Assembly (NCBI GenBank): GCA_017524725.1
Contig: JAFXUZ010000029.1
Span: 41,672 to 105,671, forward strand
Direction: 5' to 3'
Source of the DNA: Clostridia bacterium
GTDB lineage: Bacteria; Bacillota; Clostridia; Christensenellales; Aristaeellaceae
Length of the DNA stretch: 64,000 nucleotides
Position numbers and translations under genes: made by a program. Shown here piece by piece: positions 503 through 25,934 of this stretch. The first letter of the stretch is position 1. Each line of letters opens with the position of its first letter. The notes under the pieces are model-generated. The model was given only the letters and a program-made list of their open reading frames with translations. It was not told the DNA's origin and searched no databases.

Positions 503-696
503 GAAATCGTCTCCGATCGTATCCGGCGTTTCCGTATGGGAGCGTTTTGCGCTCCGTATCCCGCAAGCGGAATTGTAACATGCCCCGGCGCCTTCGTCAA
601 TGGACGCCCGGAGGCGGGTTTATTGACAAAACCCCTGAAAGAAATTACAATGGTAGTCGTTCCCGAAGGCGATTTTTTAAAAGAACGGAGGATCCT

Positions 697-1794
697 ATGA
701 GGCAAGTCCCCTGGATCAGAACCCGGGCGTCGGCCCTGGCGATGGTCCTGATCTTTTCTGTGTGCCTTCTTGTGTGCGTGACGCCGCTGATGAGCTACGG
801 ACTGATGTTTTTATACTTTGCCTCTCCGTGCCTTCTGTGCCTCGCGTGGCTTTTGAGCGGCCGGGCGGCGGCGGACGCATGCCTTGCCCTGGCCGCGGCC
901 TCGTTTTATTTCTGCGGAGGCGCGGGCGCCGCGCTGGCGGGGGCCGTTTATCTTTTCCCGGCGCATTTTGTGTTCCGTTTCATGACGGTAAGGAACTTTT
1001 CCGCCCTGAAGACCGGGATCGCCGTAGCCGCGTCCCTGATGCTCAGCCAGCTGGCCCTGTATGTCTGGGCGCAGGCGTCCCTGGGCGGGAAAGCCTACGA
1101 AGCCGCGGCCGACGCGGCCAGGGCCTGGTTTGAAGGCGACCGGGAACTGGGCGATATGCTGCTGATCTACCTCAATTATTCGGGCATGCTGCCACTTTCC
1201 GCTTCCTATACGGGGCAGGGAATGAGCATGGCCGGGGTGCTGACCGCCGCCGCCAGGGAGGACCTGCTGAACGGACTGCAGCTCAGGATCATCACCTACC
1301 TTTCGGCGCTGGTGCCGGCGATGCTGGTGGAGATGAGCATCTACCAGGGCGCCATGACGGTTTTGATCCCCCGGCGGGCTGCCGAAAAGTATATCCGGAA
1401 GCGCGCTGCGGCGGAATGGGACGGAAAGCCCTCCCTCCCCGGCGAGGACACCCCCCAGCTGAGGACCTGGCACCTTCCCCGGGGCTGGGGATGGAAGATC
1501 GGCATCCTGGGCGCGGGATATTTCCTGATCGGCTCCGCGAACGCCACCGTTTCCCTGCTGGGAAAACTGATGTTCTACGCGTTTTTCGCGATCTATACGA
1601 TCCAGGGGGTCGCTTTCCTGAACCACATCCAGTGCATGCGGGCAAGGCGCAGGATCTGGCGGATCATCATCCCCATTCTGATACTTATGATATTCCAGGA
1701 AGCGATGTGCCTGATGGGCTGTGCGGACCAGATGCTGGATATGCGCAGGCTGAGAGTAAAAAACAACGACGAGCATGACCAATGGGAGGTATGA
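697..1794 (+). CDS. DUF2232/YybS-like polytopic membrane protein
   Basis: Subset of ORF 547..1794, starting at the ATG at 697 behind GGAGG. Multiple hydrophobic helices. Sits directly upstream of and overlapping rplI, the position yybS occupies in Bacillus. Confidence 0.55.
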
Positions 1795-2279: not shown

Positions 2280-3626
2280 ATGAGCGAGACGATCCTTCCG
2301 AAGCTGCCCCAGAGCCCGGACGCGGAGCGTTCGGTGCTGGGCGCCATGATCCAGGACGAAAAAGCCCTCACCCAGGCGTCGGAAAGCCTGAAAGCGGAGG
2401 ATTTCTTTGTTCCGGCCCACCGGGAGATCTTCGGCGCGATCCTGCAGGTGATGCACAGCGGCATGGCTGTGGACCTGATCACCCTGGAGACCGAGCTTCA
2501 GCGGCGCGGAACGCTGGTGGGTGTGGGCGGCACGGAATACCTGGTGGACCTGGGGAGCACGGTCCCAAGTACGTCCAATATCAGGCATTACATCCGCATC
2601 GTGCTGGAGAAGAGCACCCTCCGCCAGCTGGCCGAATGCGGCCAGGCCATCCGCAGCGAAGCCATCGCCGAGGAGGACGACCTGGAGACCGTCCTTGAGC
2701 ACAGCGAGAAAAGCATATTCGATATCGTGATGCGCCGCACCGGGGCCGACAGCCTGGAGGGGATCGCGACCATCCTGCAGCGCACCTATGCCCTGGTGTC
2801 CGAATACGCCAGGAACAAGGGGCAGGTCAACGGCGTGACCACCGGATTTTACGACCTGGACAACCTGCTGACCGGAATGCACGGGGGCGAGCTGATCCTG
2901 ATCGGTGCGCGCCCTTCCATGGGCAAAACGTCCTTTGCGGTCAATATCTGCACCCGGGCGGCCCTGAAAGGACATAAGGTCGCTTTTTTCTCCCTGGAAA
3001 TGCCCCGGGAGCATATCGCCCTGCGCATGCTCTGCGGCGACGCGCGGGTAAATATGCAGAGCGTGCGCCAGGGCCGGCTTCGGGACGAGGAATGGGTGAA
3101 GCTGGCCAAATCCCTGGGCCCGCTGAGCCGCAGCGGCATTTTTATCGACGATACGGCCGGGATCTCGCCCATCCAGCTCCGCTCCCGCTGCCGGCGGCTG
3201 ATGATGGAGCACGGCCTGGACCTGATCGTCATCGATTACCTGCAGCTGATGACCTCGGACGGGCGGGCCGAAAACCGCCAGCTGGAGGTCAGCGAGATCA
3301 GCCGCGGGCTGAAGGCCATCGCCCTGGAACTGAAGGTGCCGCTGATCGCCTGCGCCCAGCTGAGCCGCGCCAACACCCAGCGGGCGGAAAAACGGCCCGT
3401 GCTTTCCGACCTGCGCGATTCCGGATCCATCGAGCAGGACGCCGATGTGGTGATGTTCCTCCACAGGGAATCCTATTACGACGACTCCGTGGAGGATAAA
3501 AACATCGCCGAGGCCATCGTGGCCAAGCAGCGCAACGGCCCCCTGGGCGTGATCAAGATGGCGTGGAACGGTGAATACACCCTGTTCGACAACCTTGCCT
3601 CCGGCGGGCTGGTCACGGGCGGATAA
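2280..3626 (+). CDS. dnaB: Replicative DNA helicase DnaB
   Basis: 448 aa. N-terminal PQSPDAERSVLGAMI motif, Walker A GARPSMGKTSFAVNI, and C-terminal RecA-like core (IAKQRNGP). Confidence 0.93.
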   Translation: MSETILPKLPQSPDAERSVLGAMIQDEKALTQASESLKAEDFFVPAHREIFGAILQVMHSGMAVDLITLETELQRRGTLVGVGGTEYLVDLGSTVPSTSNIRHYIRIVLEKSTLRQLAECGQAIRSEAIAEEDDLETVLEHSEKSIFDIVMRRTGADSLEGIATILQRTYALVSEYARNKGQVNGVTTGFYDLDNLLTGMHGGELILIGARPSMGKTSFAVNICTRAALKGHKVAFFSLEMPREHIALRMLCGDARVNMQSVRQGRLRDEEWVKLAKSLGPLSRSGIFIDDTAGISPIQLRSRCRRLMMEHGLDLIVIDYLQLMTSDGRAENRQLEVSEISRGLKAIALELKVPLIACAQLSRANTQRAEKRPVLSDLRDSGSIEQDADVVMFLHRESYYDDSVEDKNIAEAIVAKQRNGPLGVIKMAWNGEYTLFDNLASGGLVTGG

Positions 3627-6827: not shown

Positions 6828-6917
6828 GGCTATTCCCGCCTTTGCCGGCGCTTGAGCGTCATGAGGGTACGCGTTTTCTTAAAAACCCGGCCCGTCTTTT
6901 CTGTTGAAAAAGAAAAG

Positions 6918-6946
6918 TTGACAACTGTCCCGGGCGGGAGTAATAT
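6918..6946 (+). promoter_or_regulatory. Sigma-70-type promoter candidate (TTGACA-17-TAATAT)
   Basis: TTGACA at 6918-6923, 17-nt spacer, TAATAT at 6941-6946, upstream of the DUF1858 gene. Confidence 0.5.
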
Positions 6947-7215: not shown

Positions 7216-7671
7216 ACCGCCCGGGCGGCAAAAAAAGACCGCGGAAGACAGTCCGGATCAGGGGTCCGCAGAGGACCGGATCCGGACCGACGCCTTCGGG
7301 CGGGGCAGAAAAAGAACGGCCATGCAAAAAGCGGAAACGCTCCTTCATGGCTGTTTTTATTTGTTCGGAAAGGATCTGCGCGCGGCCGGCCGGGGGCGGG
7401 AGATCAGGGACCCCGTTCCCGGAAAACAGGCAGCGGCAAAGTTTGCTTGCAAAAAGCTGTCCCTTCCTTGTATAATGATTATAGATGTTTGTATATTGAC
7501 CTGAGGCAGGGCGGAAGGGGCCGGCAACGATGGCAGACGGATATAGGAGCACTCAGTCAGTCAGGAACCCTTTGTCCCCGGCAAAAGCCAGGGGTCTCAT
7601 TTGACGCGGCAATACCGCCGCGCCTTTTTGTGTTTCGGAAGCATTGAGCTATAGTAAGGAGACAAGGGATC

Positions 7672-10005
7672 ATGAAACGGAAACCGTGGATCATCCCGGT
7701 GCTGACGGCGTTTCTGGCGGTGCTGTTTTGCGGCGCGGCGTTGGCGGACCGGAGCGGCACCTGCGGCGACAATGTGACCTACTCGTTCGATTCCGCCACC
7801 GGCACCCTGACCGTCAGCGGGACCGGCCCAATGGCGGATTATACCCTGTCCGCTCCCGCTCCATGGGTTGATGAACGTGCGCTCATCCAAACCGTTGTCA
7901 TTGAAAACGGCGTAACGCGCGTTGGCAGCCGCGCGTTCCAGGAATGCGCCAACCTGGACAGCATTTCCATCCCGGACAGCGTGACCGGTATCGGCAATTA
8001 TGCTTTCCTCAGCTGTACCGGTTTGACCGGTATAACCCTGCCCGGCAGTTTGACCGGCATAGGCAGTTTCGCCTTCGCCGGCTGCCGCGGTCTGGACAGC
8101 GTGGCCATCCCGGATGGCGTAACGGATCTTGGCGAATATGCTTTCAACCAATGCTCCGGCCTGATCACCGTGACCCTTCCTGGCAGCGTGACCAGTATTG
8201 GCAGCAGCGTCTTCAACGGCTGTACCGGTTTGACCGATATCGCCATCCCGGATACCGTGACCAGCATCCATTCCAATGCCTTCCGCAGCTGCACCGGCCT
8301 GAGCAGCGTGAGCCTTCCGTTCAGTGTGACCGGCATCGGGCCCGACGCTTTCGCTTATTGCACCGGCCTGACCGGCGTCACCGTCAACAACCCCGGCGCC
8401 GACATCGATGAGGACGCTTTTACCGCCCATGGTGCTTCCCTTACGTTCTACGGTCTGACGGGATCGACGGCGGAGACCTACGCCGCGGAACACAGCATCC
8501 CATTTACATCCGTTGGCGCTTTCGGGCAGTGCGGCGACAACGTGCAATACGCTTTCAACTCCGTCGCCGGTGTGGTGAACATCACCGGCAGCGGGCCGAT
8601 GTGGGATTACAATTACAGCACCGCCCCTTCCCCGTTTGAGTCGGATGATTCGGTCACTTCCGCGATCATCGGCGAGGGTGTGACGAGTATCGGCAGCTGG
8701 TTCTTCAACGAATGCGGGAACCTTGAAGGCGTCAGCCTGCCCGGAAGCCTCCTGCAGATCGGAGAGGGCGCCTTCTTCTACACTGCTCTGACTTTCGTGA
8801 CGATCCCCGGCAGTGTGACCGGCATCGGCGATGGTGCTTTCAGCGAATGCGTAAATCTGACGGGCGTTACCGTCCCGGACAGCGTGACCAGCATCGGCGA
8901 CTATGCTTTCTATGACTGCCGCAGCCTGAACAGCATCACCATCCCGGACGGCGTGACCGGCATCGGAGAGAATGCTTTCTGTAATTGCAGCAGCCTGAGT
9001 GGCATCAACATTCCGGACAGTGTGACCAGCATCGGTGACAATGCTTTCTTTGACTGCTTCAACCTGACCGGCATCACCATCCCGGACAGCGTGACCAGCA
9101 TCGGCGATTATGCTTTTGCCGGCTGCTTTCGCATTACCGGCGTCACCATCCCGGACAGCATGACCAGCATCAGCTGCGGTACTTTCTCGCGCTGCACCGG
9201 CTTGACGGACGTCACCATCCCGGACAGCGTGACCGGTATCGGCGACTATGCTTTCGACTACTGCACACACCTGACGAACATCACCATCCCGGACAGCGTG
9301 ACCAGCATCGGTGAGCATGCTTTCGATGCCTGTGGTGACTTGACGGGCGTCGCCATCCCGGACAGCGTGACCAGCATCGGCGACCAGGCTTTCGTTAACT
9401 GCATCAGCCTGACCAGCATTACCATCCCGGACAGCGTGACCAGCATCAGCAACGGTGCATTCGGGAACTGTTACAGCCTGAATAGCGTCACCATCCCGGG
9501 CAGCGTGACCAGCATTGGCAGACAGGCGTTCGTTAACTGCTACGAGCTGACCGACATTACCATCCCGGGCAGCGTGACCAGCATCAGCTATCTGGTTTTC
9601 AAAGGCTGCAGCGGGCTGACCGGTGTAACCATCCTCAATCCCGACTGCATCATCGGCGACGGTGACTACGACGTCTTCGAAGGCTGCCCCGCCGCCCTCG
9701 TCATCCGCGGCTACGAAGGCTCCACGGCTCAGGCCTACGCCCAGGCGGCGGGCATGAATTTTGCCGCCCTCGCCGTCCCGTCCCCGACCTTCACCCTTCC
9801 CGCCGGCCTGACGAGCATTGAAGCCGAAGCTTTCTCCGGCATCGCCGCCGAAGCCGTCCTGATCCCCGATACAGTGACAGCCATCGAGGGCGATCCCTTT
9901 GCCGGCAGCCGGGTAAAGTTCATCTACGGCGCGCCCGGCTCCGCCGCGGAGACCTTTGCCAACGGCAATGGTTATCTCTTCGTACCCGTACCCGTTGGAG
10001 ACTGA
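7672..10005 (+). CDS. BspA-type leucine-rich repeat surface protein
   Basis: AAGGAG RBS and a signal peptide (MKRKPWIIPVLTAFLAVLFCGAALA). More than 20 tandem ~23-aa units of the form IPDSVTSIGDYAFxxCxxLTxITIP. Confidence 0.85.
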   Translation: MKRKPWIIPVLTAFLAVLFCGAALADRSGTCGDNVTYSFDSATGTLTVSGTGPMADYTLSAPAPWVDERALIQTVVIENGVTRVGSRAFQECANLDSISIPDSVTGIGNYAFLSCTGLTGITLPGSLTGIGSFAFAGCRGLDSVAIPDGVTDLGEYAFNQCSGLITVTLPGSVTSIGSSVFNGCTGLTDIAIPDTVTSIHSNAFRSCTGLSSVSLPFSVTGIGPDAFAYCTGLTGVTVNNPGADIDEDAFTAHGASLTFYGLTGSTAETYAAEHSIPFTSVGAFGQCGDNVQYAFNSVAGVVNITGSGPMWDYNYSTAPSPFESDDSVTSAIIGEGVTSIGSWFFNECGNLEGVSLPGSLLQIGEGAFFYTALTFVTIPGSVTGIGDGAFSECVNLTGVTVPDSVTSIGDYAFYDCRSLNSITIPDGVTGIGENAFCNCSSLSGINIPDSVTSIGDNAFFDCFNLTGITIPDSVTSIGDYAFAGCFRITGVTIPDSMTSISCGTFSRCTGLTDVTIPDSVTGIGDYAFDYCTHLTNITIPDSVTSIGEHAFDACGDLTGVAIPDSVTSIGDQAFVNCISLTSITIPDSVTSISNGAFGNCYSLNSVTIPGSVTSIGRQAFVNCYELTDITIPGSVTSISYLVFKGCSGLTGVTILNPDCIIGDGDYDVFEGCPAALVIRGYEGSTAQAYAQAAGMNFAALAVPSPTFTLPAGLTSIEAEAFSGIAAEAVLIPDTVTAIEGDPFAGSRVKFIYGAPGSAAETFANGNGYLFVPVPVGD

Positions 10006-10040: not shown

Positions 10041-10071
10041 GCCGCTCCCGGCGGTGGGAGCGGCTGTTTTT
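10041..10071 (+). terminator. Rho-independent terminator
   Basis: GCCGCTCCC-ggcggt-GGGAGCGGC followed by TGTTTTT, about 35 nt after the LRR gene stop. Confidence 0.65.
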
Positions 10072-10159
10072 CACCCGCCTTTATTTGACCGTGCTGTTTT
10101 CATTGCCTCATGCATCCTTCACCTGTCCAGGGACCCGCGCCGGCCCCGGACCTCATACA

Positions 10160-10310
10160 GATCTCATTTTAAAACAGCTAATGCTGTTTTAATAGCGCCG
10201 AAGGCGCGTATGAGATCGCATGTGACGTCATGCAGCGCATTGCGCTGCATGGAGCGTGCGCAGCACGCGGCATCTCAAATTGGCTAAATCAATTTGGGAT
10301 AAGTATCAGT
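10160..10310. repeat. Multi-hairpin intergenic element, copy A (second copy at 17404-17550)
   Basis: Shares sequence blocks and hairpin architecture with 17404-17550: an identical ATAGCGCCGAAGGCGCG, CACGCGG..CTCAAATTG, and a terminal AGTATCA. Several stems differ by paired compensatory changes. The terminal TCA is the PBP1A stop codon. Confidence 0.6.
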
Positions 10311-13134
10311 ACTGCGCCGCGGCCATGGCCCGGGTCAGCTCCACCATGGCGGCGTAGAGGGTGTCGGAGGACGGGGAGCCCGAGAGGAGGGCCCCCAGAC
10401 TGTTGTAGGCGTTCACCAGGTCGTAATAACCGGGAGCGTCCTGGGCCAGTGAGCCGAGCAGCGCCGAGGCGCTGTTCATCAGCCCCCAGGCGTCGCTGAC
10501 CAGTGTGCTGTCCGCCATGGTGGCATAGGAGGCGCTGGTATGGATGCCGCAGGTCATGGTGCGGATGGCGGCGTTGTTGGCTGTGGCGTTGTCGGCGGTC
10601 ATCCTCAGGGACGCGAAGGAGCCGAGCCAGTCCTCCAGGACGCCCTCGTACCGGGTGCCGATGAACCGGTACAGGGGATGGCCGTAGGGGATCAGGATCA
10701 CGGAACGCGACTCGGTGGAGGGGCAGTAGGTGCCGGCCAGCAGATGGGAATCGGAGCAGACGGTCAGGTTCATGTGCATCTGGCAGGAGGTGGTGGGCAC
10801 GTTTTCCCGGGGCCACCAGTCGGTGACGGTGCCGTAGCCCATGGCGTCGTGCCGGCAGGCGTCGGTGGCCAGCTGGCCCGAAACGGCGCAGGTCTCCACC
10901 TTCACCAGGCCGAAATTTTCGGCGCTGCCCTCAAGGATGTCCTTGTCACTCAGGTTTTTGCGGCTGTGGACGGAGCTCATGAAGGCCTGCCACAATTTGG
11001 CGGCGGCGCTGCCGCCGGTGGTCTTGGAGGACAGGGGCTTGTAATTGTCGTGGCCGATCCATACCGAGGCGCAGTACCAGCCGGTCATACCGGTAAAAAA
11101 CACGCCGCGCTGGTCGCTGTTGGTGCCGGTCTTGCCGGCGACGGTCTGTCCCCGGATCTTCGCGTTGGTGCCGGTGCCTTTGGAGACCGCGTCCTTGAGC
11201 ATGTCCACCACCAGGAACGCCGTGGAATCCCGGAACACCTGCCGGCGTTCCTGCACCTGGTGGGCGTCGTAAATGGTGGTGCCGGCGCTGTCGGTGATGG
11301 CCAGGACGCTGATGGGCTCCTGGTATACGCCGTAATTGCCGAACACGCCGAAGGCCACCGTCATCTCCAGGGGGGTGATGCCCGAGGAGCCGAGAGTGAC
11401 GCCGAAGGGCGTTTCGGAGATGTGATCCGCGCTGACTCCCAGCGAAAGGAGGGTGTCCGCGGCGGCCGATACGCCCACGCAGTTCATCATGCACCAGGCG
11501 GCGGCGGTGTTGTCGGATTTGACCAGCGCGGTGCGCATCGTTTCGGGCCCCCGGTAGCTGGACCCGCCGTAGTTCTGGGGCCAGGTATCCCGGCCGGACG
11601 AATCGGTCCAGCCGGTGATGGGCAGCTCCATGTTGTAGAGTATCGTGCCGGCGCCGGCGCCGTTCTCGATGGCCGGGGCGTAGACGGCGATGGGCTTGAT
11701 CGCGGAACCCACGGGCATGTTCATGTCGGTGGCTCGGTTGAGGGTCTTGCGCTGGGTGGGGCGGACCCGGCTGCCCACGATGGCCTTGATCTCCCCGGTG
11801 CGGTAGTCGAGCACCACCGCCGCGGCCTGGGGCTGGGGGACCTCCTCATAGGTGCCGTCCGAATTCCTAGCCCGGTAGACGCCGTCCTCGGGATCCCGGG
11901 TCCCGGGCCAGTCGGTCCAGGAGTACAGCGTTTCCTCCACCGTGTTCTGGATCTCGGGGTCGATGGCAAGGTAGATGCGGTAGCCGCCGGTCCTCAGGTC
12001 CTGCTCCATCCGGGCCCGGTTGGCGGAGGTGTTCTGAAGGCCGTTCAGTTCCAGAAGCACCCGGACGGCTTCCTTTACGGCGTATTCCACGTAATGCGGA
12101 TAGGAATACAGCTGCGTGCTCTCCGGGCTTTTTTCAAGCACGCCGGCGGCGGCGGGGGAAAGGGCGGCGGTGTATTCGTCATGGGTGATGAACTGGTTTT
12201 CGTACATGCACCTGAGCACGTAATCCGTTCGGTCGTTGGTGATGGCGGCGTAGTCCACGGTGTCGGACTGCCGGGTGTAGAAATTGCGCCGGGGGTTGTA
12301 ATAGTAAGGGCTGTTGCAGATCCCCGCCAGCATCGCGCATTCCCTGAGCGTCAGGTCGTTCAAGTCGTTTTTGCCGAAATAGCCGTAGGCGGCGGTCTGC
12401 ACGCCGTAATAATCCTCGCCCATATAGATGGTGTTCAGGTAGCACTCCAGGATCTGGTCCTTGGTGTAGCGCTGCTCCAGCTGCATGGCGAGGTAAGCCT
12501 CCTGGATCTTGCGCTTGTAGCTCTGCTCGCTGGACAGGAGGGTGTTTTTGATCAGCTGCTGGGTGATGGTGGAGCCGCCCTGGCGGGAGCCGGTGATGGA
12601 ATTGGCGATGAAGGAGCCGACGATGCGCTTGATGTCGATGCCGTTATGGGTGTAGAAACGGGCGTCCTCCACCGCCACGAAGGCATGCTGGAGGTACCGG
12701 GGCATCGACGAAATGGACACCATCACCCGGTTTTCGGTGCCGTGGTATTCGGCGATCAGGTTGCCGGAGGCGTCATAAATGAAGGAGGTCTGGGCCTGGT
12801 CGTCGATGGCGGCCAGGTCCAGGTCCGGCGCGGTGTCCACATAGGCGCGGGCGATGCCCACCACCGCCCCGATGCCGGAAAGCATCAGAGCCAGCACCAG
12901 CACCGCCAGGGTGCGGAAGGTGTTGACGATTACCGCAAGCACAAAGGAAGGCCTGCGGGGCGTGCTTTTGAAAATGCTCCGCCGGGAGGGCTCCTTCTTC
13001 TCCTCCTCCTCCCATGCGCCGCCGCCCCAGGCGTCGTCCGGGAAAAGCGCTTCTGGAAGATCGCCGGCGCGCTTATCCTCCGCCGCGCCGTCCTCCGGCA
13101 CGGGGAAAGCGCCTGTATCGCGGTCCCGTATCAT
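10306..13134 (-). CDS. Class A penicillin-binding protein (PBP1A-type transglycosylase/transpeptidase)
   Basis: N-terminal TM helix. GT51 motifs EDARFYTHNGID and GGSTITQQL. Transpeptidase motifs SAIKP (SxxK), SDN and KTGT. About 200-aa C-terminal extension. Confidence 0.9.
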   Translation of the reverse strand: MIRDRDTGAFPVPEDGAAEDKRAGDLPEALFPDDAWGGGAWEEEEKKEPSRRSIFKSTPRRPSFVLAVIVNTFRTLAVLVLALMLSGIGAVVGIARAYVDTAPDLDLAAIDDQAQTSFIYDASGNLIAEYHGTENRVMVSISSMPRYLQHAFVAVEDARFYTHNGIDIKRIVGSFIANSITGSRQGGSTITQQLIKNTLLSSEQSYKRKIQEAYLAMQLEQRYTKDQILECYLNTIYMGEDYYGVQTAAYGYFGKNDLNDLTLRECAMLAGICNSPYYYNPRRNFYTRQSDTVDYAAITNDRTDYVLRCMYENQFITHDEYTAALSPAAAGVLEKSPESTQLYSYPHYVEYAVKEAVRVLLELNGLQNTSANRARMEQDLRTGGYRIYLAIDPEIQNTVEETLYSWTDWPGTRDPEDGVYRARNSDGTYEEVPQPQAAAVVLDYRTGEIKAIVGSRVRPTQRKTLNRATDMNMPVGSAIKPIAVYAPAIENGAGAGTILYNMELPITGWTDSSGRDTWPQNYGGSSYRGPETMRTALVKSDNTAAAWCMMNCVGVSAAADTLLSLGVSADHISETPFGVTLGSSGITPLEMTVAFGVFGNYGVYQEPISVLAITDSAGTTIYDAHQVQERRQVFRDSTAFLVVDMLKDAVSKGTGTNAKIRGQTVAGKTGTNSDQRGVFFTGMTGWYCASVWIGHDNYKPLSSKTTGGSAAAKLWQAFMSSVHSRKNLSDKDILEGSAENFGLVKVETCAVSGQLATDACRHDAMGYGTVTDWWPRENVPTTSCQMHMNLTVCSDSHLLAGTYCPSTESRSVILIPYGHPLYRFIGTRYEGVLEDWLGSFASLRMTADNATANNAAIRTMTCGIHTSASYATMADSTLVSDAWGLMNSASALLGSLAQDAPGYYDLVNAYNSLGALLSGSPSSDTLYAAMVELTRAMAAAQY

Positions 13135-17148: not shown

Positions 17149-17222
17149 TGGGGAATGGTGTAACGGCAGCACCTACGACTCTGACTCGTATTGTCTAGGT
17201 TCAAATCCTAGTTCCCCAGCCA
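17149..17222 (+). tRNA. tRNA-Gln (anticodon CTG)
   Basis: Hand-folded cloverleaf. Acceptor TGGGGAA/TTCCCCA, anticodon stem TACGA/TCGTA with loop CTCTGAC, T-arm CTAGG-TTCAAAT-CCTAG, encoded GCCA tail. Confidence 0.9.
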
Positions 17223-17226
17223 TTTT

Positions 17227-17302
17227 GCCTCCATTGTCTAGTGGCCTAGGACACCGCCCTCTCAAGGCGGAAACATGGGTTCGAATCCCATTGGAGGTGC
17301 CA
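17227..17302 (+). tRNA. tRNA-Glu (anticodon CTC)
   Basis: Acceptor GCCTCCA/TGGAGGT (G1-U72 wobble), D-arm GTCT..GGAC, anticodon stem CCGCC/GGCGG with loop CTCTCAA, T-arm ATGGG-TTCGAAT-CCCAT, encoded CCA. Confidence 0.85.
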
Positions 17303-17330: not shown

Positions 17331-17403
17331 GTTTGGCGGAGCCCTTGAAGGGCTTTTTTTATTGCCTGCGAAGCGGCAAAAAAACAGCCGCGAAAGCGGG
17401 AGG

Positions 17404-17550
17404 TCATACTGATCCTGTTTAAAAAGGCTAAATGCCTTTTTATAGCGCCGAAGGCGCGTTCAGGATCGGACGGCATGACGCGCTTTGCGCGGCAGAGATA
17501 AGCGTAGCACGCGGATACTCAAATTGATTATTTCAATTTGAATAGTATCA
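17404..17550. repeat. Multi-hairpin intergenic element, copy B (see 10160-10310)
   Basis: Same block order and orientation as copy A. Lies between the tRNA terminators and the 3' end of the minus-strand HAD gene. Confidence 0.6.
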
Positions 17551-17623
17551 CTTTTCGCGGCTGGCGGTAATCTGCAACCCGTTTCGGTACGGTTTCGGCA
17601 AGGCGCCGGAAAGCCGCGTCCCT

Positions 17624-24371: not shown

Positions 24372-25573
24372 GGTTTATCCAGGTGCCCTCCCACAGGGAG
24401 CGGATCCCCGGAGGAAAAGTCGGGGGCAGGATCATTCTGGCGGACGGAACGGAGCCGCTTTGGGAATACGCAGGCACGGTGAAATGCGTTTACATCGACC
24501 CGCCCTTCAATACCGGCGGATCCTTTGTGATGCGCCAGAAGGTGGGGGAGAAGGACTGGGCCGGGGACAAAAGCTCCCTGACGGTGCCGGCTTATTCGGA
24601 CAGGAACGAAAGCCGGGGGGCGTATCACGCCTTCCTCCGGTCGCTGATCTACAGCGCCTGGACGCTGCTGGACGAACGGGGCGTGTTTTTCCTGCACCTG
24701 GACCCGCGGGAGAGCGCCTGGGCGAGGATCCTGTGCGACCAGGTTTTCGGCGAGGATCATTTTGTCAACGAGATCATCTGGTCCTACCAGAGCGGCGGCA
24801 GGACCACGAAGCGCTTCCCGACCAAGCACGACACCATTCTTTTTTACCGCAAGGGCAGGGACATGCGTTTCGACCTGAAGGCCGTGCCGATCAAGCGGGA
24901 GGACAACCGCAAAAACCATATGCGCCGCCTGGTGGATGAAAACGGCCGGACGTACAGGACCATCGTCTCGGGCGGGAAGATCTACACTTATTATGACGAC
25001 GACCCTGTGTATCCCGGCGACGTGTGGACCGACATATCCCACCTGCAGCAAAAGGACCCGCGGCGCACCGGCTACGACACCCAGAAGCCTCCGGCGCTGC
25101 TTGAGCGGGTGCTGCTGCCGGTGACCCTGCCCGGGGAAACGGTTGCGGACCTGTGCTGCGGCAGCGGTTCAACCGGGGCGGCCGCGGCGGCCCTGGACAG
25201 GCCTTTCCTGATGACCGATATATCCCCCCTGGCGGTTTTGACGGCCCGGCGCAGGCTGGTCGACTGCGACCTGACGGTGGACCTGCCCTCCGTCACGGAC
25301 GGCGGGGACCTGGAGTGCGAATGTGGCCGGGAGGGGGACAGCCTGACCTTCACCCTGAAAAGCTATGGCAAAGGCGGTCTGGACGAGGCCGACACCTGGG
25401 CCGTGGGCGAGATAAGGGACGGTGTGTTCACGGTTTCGGCCCTCAGCCGCCGCACCCGCAAAACCCCGGCCCTGGCCGAATCCCTCACCATGCCCGCAAG
25501 CCCATACGCCGCGGTAGAGATCACCGACGTGTACGGGAAAAGGAGCGTTTGGGCGGCGGAGAGCGAAAAATGA
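24368..25573 (+). CDS. Site-specific DNA methyltransferase (N6/N4 family, beta-class motif order), orphan
   Basis: Start taken at the ATG at 24368 (MRFIQ) overlapping the upstream stop. Catalytic motif IV VYIDPPFNTG comes first, then TQKP, then the SAM motif LCCGSGSTG near the C-terminal third. About 110-aa C-terminal extension. No nuclease gene on either side. Confidence 0.8.
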   Translation: MRFIQVPSHRERIPGGKVGGRIILADGTEPLWEYAGTVKCVYIDPPFNTGGSFVMRQKVGEKDWAGDKSSLTVPAYSDRNESRGAYHAFLRSLIYSAWTLLDERGVFFLHLDPRESAWARILCDQVFGEDHFVNEIIWSYQSGGRTTKRFPTKHDTILFYRKGRDMRFDLKAVPIKREDNRKNHMRRLVDENGRTYRTIVSGGKIYTYYDDDPVYPGDVWTDISHLQQKDPRRTGYDTQKPPALLERVLLPVTLPGETVADLCCGSGSTGAAAAALDRPFLMTDISPLAVLTARRRLVDCDLTVDLPSVTDGGDLECECGREGDSLTFTLKSYGKGGLDEADTWAVGEIRDGVFTVSALSRRTRKTPALAESLTMPASPYAAVEITDVYGKRSVWAAESEK

Positions 25574-25665
25574 AGAGTGAAGAGTGAAGAGTGGAGAGTG
25601 AAGAGCGGAGAGTGAAGAGTGGAGAGTGAAGAGTGGAGAGTGAAGAGTGGAGAGTGAAGAGTGGA
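25571..25665. repeat. Tandem heptanucleotide array (TGRAGAG, equivalently GTGRAGA), 13 units plus a partial
   Basis: Direct reading gives 13 contiguous 7-nt units from 25571 to 25661, alternating GAAGAG/GGAGAG types with one CGGAGAG variant. The first unit contains the methyltransferase stop codon. The array ends in GTGGATCTTTGGATTAC. Confidence 0.9.
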
Positions 25666-25765: not shown

Positions 25766-25810
25766 CGCAAAAAACAAAGAGCGGAGAACGGCTCTGTTTC
25801 CGTTCTCCGC
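25766..25810 (-). terminator. Rho-independent terminator (minus-strand sense) between the two heptamer arrays
   Basis: GCGGAGAACGG-8 nt-CCGTTCTCCGC (11-bp stem). On the minus strand it is followed by TCTTTGTTTTTTG. No U-run on the plus strand. Confidence 0.6.
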
Positions 25811-25821
25811 AATCAAAGTAA

Positions 25822-25934
25822 TCTTACTCTCCACTCTCCACTCTTTCCGTTCCCCGTAATCAGAGTAATCTTACTCTTCACTCTCCACTCTTCACTCTTC
25901 ACTCTGTAATATCACTCTCCACTCTGTAATCTCC
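25822..25934. repeat. Inverted-orientation heptamer array (TCTYCAC units) punctuated by GTAAT motifs
   Basis: TCTCCAC/TCTTCAC units (reverse complement of GTGRAGA) at 25828-25841, 25875-25902 and 25916-25922, plus degenerate units. They are interrupted by GTAATC/GTAATA motifs that mirror GATTAC at the end of the left array. Confidence 0.8.

Follow-up and report, generated by a model that had tools for sequence, protein, structure and literature searches.

A hairpin-rich intergenic repeat family of gut and rumen Clostridia with the features of a miniature transposon

Two look-alike intergenic stretches were noticed in a 64,000-nt stretch of Clostridia DNA (hereafter the window, meaning the whole stretch at its full length), and we found that they are homologous members of a repeat family that is very probably a MITE, that is, a non-autonomous DNA transposon and an ordinary kind of element. 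The repeat is multicopy and dispersed, has sharp ends with inverted repeats, is flanked by a 3-bp duplication of its target and is absent from orthologous loci, all of which supports the MITE assignment. The family is apparently undescribed; no description of it was found in the literature. The idea of a new sRNA or riboswitch-like family, in turn, turned out to be a false lead.

Copies in the window and in other genomes

All the sequence features named in the original prediction of two related stretches are present in the window. Copies A and B show 82% column identity on the alignment and have in common an identical 17-mer, ATAGCGCCGAAGGCGCG, located at 10192-10208 in copy A and at 17442-17458 in copy B. 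Both are matched by an HMM built from family members (nhmmer; Table 1), and a search with the family HMM revealed no third copy in the window. The copies reach slightly further to the left than was given earlier, with real boundaries at 10153-10308 and 17404-17550, including the flanking TCAs. Copy B is degenerate in that the CATGA linker is deleted, P2b is shortened and part of P2/P2b is lost.

Table 1. Features of the two window copies and their gene neighbours
Feature	Position	Strand	Basis
Intrinsic terminator outside copy A, 88 nt past its left end	10041..10064	-	terminator scan
Left target-site duplication TCA, copy A (same as right triplet)	10153..10155	.	family-wide T-N-A concordance, 53/62
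MITE body, copy A, A-type subfamily, TACAGATCTCA...GGGATAAGTA	10156..10305	+	nhmmer (E=2e-52), fold z, 46.8% G+C, stops in six frames
Copy A hairpin P1	10160-10167/10210-10217		folding
Copy A hairpin P1a	10169-10178/10183-10192		folding
Copy A hairpin P1b	10195-10199/10203-10207		folding
Copy A hairpin P2	10228-10238/10242-10252		folding
Copy A hairpin P2b	10254-10259/10263-10268		folding
Copy A hairpin P3	10272-10283/10289-10300		folding
Right target-site duplication TCA, copy A (TGA stop codon of PBP1A gene)	10306..10308	-	ORF list, Pfam
PBP1A gene	10306-13134	-	ORF list; Pfam Transgly + Transpeptidase
Predicted HAD terminator, 3' arm (17385-17396) and U-run (A7 on + strand, 17378-17384), split	17378..17396	-	
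Left target-site duplication TCA, copy B	17404..17406	.	family-wide T-N-A concordance
MITE body, copy B, B-type subfamily	17407..17547	+	nhmmer (E=7e-42), alignments, fold
Copy B hairpin P1	17409-17417/17461-17469		fold
Copy B hairpin P1a	17420-17428/17434-17442		fold
Copy B hairpin P1b	17445-17449/17453-17457		fold
Copy B hairpin P3	17519-17527/17533-17541, extended by 17514-17518/17545-17549		fold
Right target-site duplication TCA, copy B	17548..17550	.	family-wide T-N-A concordance
Predicted HAD terminator, 5' arm (minus-strand sense), parted from its partner by copy B	17551..17563	-	

The ORF list bears out the earlier proposal that PBP1A uses the terminal TCA of copy A as its stop codon. 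The intrinsic terminator beyond the left end of copy A is likely the end of the PBP1A transcript, so that the element would be carried in the PBP1A 3'-UTR. The end of copy B lies 73 nt past the HAD gene stop, and this copy is predicted to sit within the loop of the HAD gene terminator. When the empty site is reconstructed, it folds as CAGCCGCGAAAAG-loop-CTTTCGCGGCTG followed by T7, with the TGA target within the loop, and in the minus-strand RNA the terminator stem is still predicted to close around the folded copy B.

We also made several observations on the surroundings of the copies. Beside copy A, at 7672-10005 (+), there is a gene for a BspA-type leucine-rich-repeat (LRR) protein with 69-nt (23-aa) repeats. 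It is missing from the PBP1A loci of the four closest relatives, in which a DUF1858 gene directly follows PBP1A, and the gene adjoining copy A is therefore lineage-specific. Copy B and a D-type copy in locus L085 are each ~100 nt downstream of a tRNA cluster, which consists of tRNA-Gln(CTG) and tRNA-Glu(CTC) at 17149-17302 in the window and of four tRNAs at 44-471 in L085. Between the tRNAs and the element are two plus-strand terminators in the window, and one plus-strand and one minus-strand terminator in L085. Elsewhere in the window, a non-coding array of ~15 heptamers (AGAGTGA / AGAGTGG) occupies 25560-25665, and ~130 nt on, at 25797-25930, repeats of 47 and 20 nt contain the heptamer reverse complements ACTCTCC / ACTCTTC; the arrays lie inverted and face to face within the gap between converging genes.

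Outside the window, four MAGs of rumen and gut Clostridia contain at least 22 further full-length copies, located at loci unrelated to each other: RGIG6132 has at least 13, RUG13460 five, SRR12081294_bin.45 three and SRR12081293_bin.2 one. The motif scan behind these, with a single genome for each species, gave 52 stretches, roughly half of which are chance matches in unrelated phyla, and a second motif scan of metagenomes with the left domain gave more than 120 loci among the matches listed, from human-gut and rumen samples. BLAST against plasmids and phages yielded no match to the A- and D-type copies, and a motif scan of IMG/VR yielded no match to the element. The copies are 143-165 bp long with ~45% G+C in host loci of 57-62%, and they are non-coding, 25 of the 27 representatives having stop codons in all six frames, both window copies included. 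Several subfamilies occur side by side, with modules shuffled among them in the alignment, and near-identical copies are found at dispersed loci whose flanks are unrelated.

In one metagenome assembly, more than 20 contigs terminate inside the element, as is expected for a repeat; the element thus fragments the assemblies of gut and rumen Clostridia MAGs. It also appears to mediate rearrangements, since flanks are swapped between copies. In L057, L133 and L171, as compared with L085/L075 and L078/L102, a left flank from one locus and a right flank from a different one meet around the copy, the TGA and TCA triplets being discordant, and at L182:891-1140 copy B is found with a different left flank. 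These mixed-flank copies either arose when copies recombined or are chimeras made at the repeat during assembly. In L026, two inverted copies, at 663-826 (-) and 3135-3287 (+), bracket ~2.3 kb of ordinary genes and could in principle move as a composite. In L097, two tandem copies have one TCA in common (truncated MITE copy, 6841-6923; TCA, 6924-6926), which, like the nesting of an IS5-family IS in one copy, is behaviour seen with transposons.

Element ends, target-site duplication and insertion context

The homology edges are sharp in every copy, starting with TACT and stopping with AGTA, and a T-N-A triplet is located outside each end. With the right end placed by HMM coordinates alone as a guard against bias, the left and right triplets were identical in 53 of 62 distinct insertions, compared with 24 expected if the two sides were independent. 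The concordant pairs, rare triplets included, were TCA/TCA (29), TTA/TTA (16), TGA/TGA (7) and TAA/TAA (1). Because the middle base is identical and not complementary, the triplets indicate a target-site duplication of 3 bp. Of the nine discordant insertions, four have the left flank known from one locus but the right flank known from a different one. The rough flank consensus is (T)(C/T)|TNA|(G)(A). We noticed that A occupies the +2 position after the right duplication (e.g. window 10309-10310 and 17551-17552) in 39 of 53 insertions, including insertions that are not at stop codons, while the mirror position at the left is T in only 20 of 52; either the two sides of the target are preferred unequally or the right boundary has been placed slightly off.

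The ends, with the invariant TACT/AGTA, form imperfect inverted repeats of 11-14 nt. In the A type, the alignment of the left TACTGATCTCA with the reverse complement of the right TACTCATCTCA gives 10 of 11 matches. The C type has 11 of 14, the B and D types are weaker (~6-9 of 11-14), and in the F type CCCC is common to both ends. The left and right ends co-vary between subfamilies.

A hairpin-dependent single-stranded DNA (ssDNA) element, be it a PATE of the IS200/IS605 type or a unit like REP/BIME, would be mobilised by a RAYT or an HUH (Y1) transposase through recognition of the subterminal hairpins. Such an element would fit the hairpins near both ends, the weak terminal inverted repeats of some subfamilies and the almost purely Watson-Crick stems, as DNA hairpins should be. 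We consider it very unlikely, since a T-N-A triplet with a variable middle base is duplicated on both sides, whereas IS200/IS605 elements leave their target unduplicated and go in 3' of a constant sequence of four or five nucleotides. Moreover, the hairpins at the two ends differ from each other, a REP unit is far smaller than this element and has a GTAG-type head that is missing here, and no tnpA or RAYT was noticed nearby in an unsystematic search.

Comparison with orthologous loci further supports the MITE assignment. The element is absent from the four closest PBP1A orthologues (93, 90, 86 and 82% identity; nhmmer on fetched flanks), which have a single stop codon. In the closest one, L185 (93%), the gene ends ...AQY-TGA as in the window and then leads directly into the 3'-UTR and terminator. 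These results indicate that the copy A insertion is lineage-specific and that it left the PBP1A protein end unchanged. This empty-site comparison rests on the gene end, the DNA downstream of the PBP1A stop not being alignable because the relatives are without the BspA-type LRR gene. A scan of metagenomes gave no match to the empty site of copy A, and none was found for copy B, which is carried by all seven HAD places listed, of 19 contigs with the gene. The orthologous genes in L031 and L026 have copies at different offsets and in opposite orientations, indicating independent insertions; their use as mutual empty sites was dropped, the intergenic DNA being too diverged to align. Recent insertions could be usable as strain-typing markers.

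We then related the insertions to genes, which were called from long ORFs with the third-position G+C signature of the host genomes. In the MAG set, a gene 3' end reads into the right end in ~20 of 23 copies, and the other neighbouring gene usually converges, 50-190 nt away. In the reconstructed empty sites the target lies between the stop codon and the intrinsic terminator, and in L069 and L085 the terminator begins 5-13 nt past the left end of the element. The duplicated triplet is itself a stop codon in 25 events, compared with 11.4 expected if every T-N-A up to 120 nt downstream of a stop were equally likely. A TGA or TAA stop is itself a T-N-A triplet and is therefore restored by the duplication, which offers the transposon a simple and harmless entry into gene-dense genomes.

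The stop-codon insertions are also strongly oriented relative to the upstream gene, with ~17 having the gene read into the right end and two into the left (distinct loci in the per-insertion table), counts that take in related genomes and may not be fully independent. This bias and the conservation of the hairpins are testable oddities of the family. No promoter or terminator within the element accounts for the orientation, and a tie between orientation and replication was not convincing (GC skew positive in 34 of 55 loci). Specific insertion into hairpin loops was likewise rejected, as just 2 of 18 reconstructed sites fit, and so was a role of the left end as a Shine-Dalgarno sequence plus ATG for a downstream gene, the frames not corresponding to real ORFs.

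Conserved folding and the RNA readings

Every stem proposed earlier was recovered by folding, and the folding energy of copy A is far below that of dinucleotide shuffles on both strands (z=-7.0 for plus, z=-8.6 for minus). All 27 representatives (<93% identity) have the same fold plan, in which the ends pair together (P0) and enclose a P1 three-way junction bearing P1a and P1b, a linker, and the hairpins P2, P2b and P3. The compensatory changes seen between the two window copies are real and extend family-wide, with 28 of 55 pairs changed on both sides. In an 18-sequence alignment, 94.3% of the cells are paired versus 82.2% in shuffles, and the covariation score is 0.393 versus 0.177 in shuffles (0 of 500 as high) and at most 0.085 when the partners were slid. 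P1b seems invariant because both scans required its sequence; a copy found independently has GCACT-GAA-AGTGC at P1b.

The few non-Watson-Crick cells are symmetric (20 G·T vs 16 A·C), and the two strands reach similar totals of folding energy (-1735 vs -1699 kcal/mol), which argues for a constraint on palindromic DNA or on either strand and not on an RNA of a single polarity. Unpaired columns vary about twice as fast as paired ones, and about half of the paired-column variants are compensated; uncompensated stem mismatches are common within individual copies. Our best guess is that the hairpins are conserved via selection on master copies for DNA mobilisation, or via template-switch (palindrome-correcting) mutation. 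We also observed that the linker (G)CATGAGACG(G), which is unpaired and separates P1 from P2 (window 10218-10227), is kept in most subfamilies despite their differing stems. The region contains GAGACG/CGTCTC, and its first five bases are gone in copy B. The linker may be a protein-binding site.

Such folding could suggest stand-alone structured small-RNA genes or a cis-regulatory RNA multiplied by duplication, with the hairpins serving an RNA function, and the high significance of the folding, the strong covariation and the conserved unpaired linker are what this reading has in its favour. An Rfam check of the kind proposed originally was run on both window copies and ten loci of other subfamilies, and neither at gathering nor at permissive thresholds did a relevant family match; only tRNAs reach the threshold, the best scores below it being 12-21 bits (E 0.8 or more). 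The earlier suggestion of a terminator-like end did not hold, as the P1a hairpin fails a simple intrinsic-terminator criterion; in the four copies scanned we found no intrinsic terminator inside the element, the real terminators being just outside, and no promoter was detected within the scanned copies. An independent sRNA gene is thus not supported, given that strand asymmetry, a promoter and an Rfam match are all missing. The sharp ends with target-site duplications, the near-identical dispersed copies at which contigs break, and the finding that copies face either way with respect to genes and also lie within terminator loops also stand against RNA genes, and we regard them as extremely unlikely. 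Of the two readings originally offered, therefore, the REP/MITE-like DNA element stands and the independent sRNA gene does not, while the 3'-UTR element was right in position only.

The element is probably co-transcribed as part of 3'-UTRs, as judged from its location. This position is accounted for by where the element inserts or survives and provides no evidence of RNA function. That the MITE was in addition co-opted as an RNA module is rather unlikely; in this reading, its stable hairpins would be transcribed by read-through from the upstream gene and, lying before the terminator, would make the 3' end of the mRNA more stable, take part in its processing or insulate it. If true, this would account for the predominant orientation and would add to the MITE explanation rather than exclude it. 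It would agree with copies lying between stop codon and terminator, as close as in L069 and L085 or with the terminator around the element as in copy B, and with the orientation (~17 vs 2) and the exact stop-codon insertions (25 vs 11.4). In addition, ERIC and Correia elements are co-transcribed with their neighbours and ERIC is reported to affect mRNA stability (PMC2229807). Against co-option, the wobble counts and strand energies favour neither strand, and the copies decay, as seen in the loss of part of P2/P2b in copy B and in many uncompensated stem mismatches.

Proposed mechanism and comparison with known elements

For the MITE, we propose that a transposase supplied in trans would recognise the ends TACT[A/G]...[T/C]AGTA with their imperfect inverted repeats and cleave a T-N-A target of about the form C|TNA|G(A) with a stagger of 3 nt, and that repair would then duplicate the triplet on either side of the element. 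Insertion into a TGA or TAA stop would regenerate the stop and leave the protein intact. Surviving copies would build up between stops and terminators or in terminator loops, where they are probably read through as 3'-UTR.

A C|TNA|G target has been described for one group within the IS5/PIF-Harbinger (PHIS) superfamily, in which 3-bp duplications are typical (PMC4482050). Since the C|TNA|G-like target and the 3-bp duplication of the present family are the signature of this superfamily, a PHIS-type transposase is the most likely driver, although we give the assignment to the PHIS DDE transposase class only a roughly even chance. Counting against the MITE explanation, the inverted repeats have little length, and those of the B and D subfamilies are weak. 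IS5-family ends, as described in ISfinder, usually begin with G and not with TACT. In ~1.2 Mb of collected loci, no autonomous parent with the same ends was found by searching for end motifs 0.5-3.5 kb apart, by tblastn with an IS5-family transposase or by all-against-all BLAST for IS-sized repeats.

Likewise, we found no DDE_Tnp_1/DUF4096-type transposase gene having its ends in common with the family, the sole such IS found being an 863-bp IS5-family element at L097:6932-7794. This IS encodes OrfA (DUF4096) and OrfB (DDE_Tnp_1) with an A-rich slippery frameshift site near 7325, has the ends GGCCTTGTTTGAAAAAT / ATTTTTAAAACAAGCCC and a duplicated TA within CTAG, and interrupts one MITE copy at its left terminus (TAC-TA|...|TA-GTCTC). 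It was rejected as the MITE parent, for its ends are unrelated, it duplicates TA and it is merely nested in a copy.

Five local hairpins and 28 covarying pairs exceed the known needs of a DDE-type MITE, which counts against that assignment. The element might be more than a passive MITE, its covarying local hairpins and conserved linker then marking either (a) a mobilisation route dependent on folded ends, for instance ssDNA or cruciform DNA recognised by its transposase, with a 3-bp duplication or (b) a mobile self-folding 3'-UTR cassette, but we hold this to be unlikely. Under (b), the cassette would land in stops, regenerate them and tolerate terminator loops, and one orientation would be retained through an effect of its RNA on the end of the upstream transcript.

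Among known elements, those of the PHIS superfamily and its Tourist-like MITEs, including the NuwaII group with its C|TNA|G target, have the same 3-bp T-N-A duplication and C...G flank preference (PMC4482050), and an IS5-family transposase occurs alongside the present family in L097. However, the TACT ends are unlike the GG...-type ends of the L097 IS or of Tourist MITEs, the NuwaII elements are eukaryotic, and the right flank of the present family adds an asymmetric A preference at +2 to C|TNA|G. The CerM-associated intergenic repeats (CIR elements) of Caulobacter have similarly independent 5' and 3' stem-loops joined by a linker (PMC2229807), but they are only partly MITE-like, contain a GANTC methylation motif, have no sequence relation to the present family and move by a mechanism that is unknown. 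SPRITE and REP-BIME sequences have the same position at gene 3' ends and may form hairpins in the mRNA (PMC10969869). The present family differs from them in having no internal terminator signature, in its target duplication and inverted repeats, and in being much longer than REP.

The Correia/NEMIS, RUP and ERIC/IRU elements are short non-coding MITEs that form stable hairpins when transcribed and are co-transcribed with their neighbours (PMC2229807). Those of Neisseria (Correia/NEMIS), S. pneumoniae (RUP, derived from IS630-Spn1) and enterobacteria (ERIC/IRU) resemble the present family in being non-coding, 100-170 bp long and AT-rich relative to the host, as well as multicopy and intergenic with terminal inverted repeats and a short target duplication. 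While they duplicate TA or bear a TA motif at their ends, the present family duplicates T-N-A, and while they fold mainly 5' end to 3' end, it pairs each terminus internally (P1 and P3) and has three further hairpins between P1 and P3. It also differs from them in its hosts, which are uncultured gut and rumen Clostridia, and in that its insertions often coincide with stop codons.
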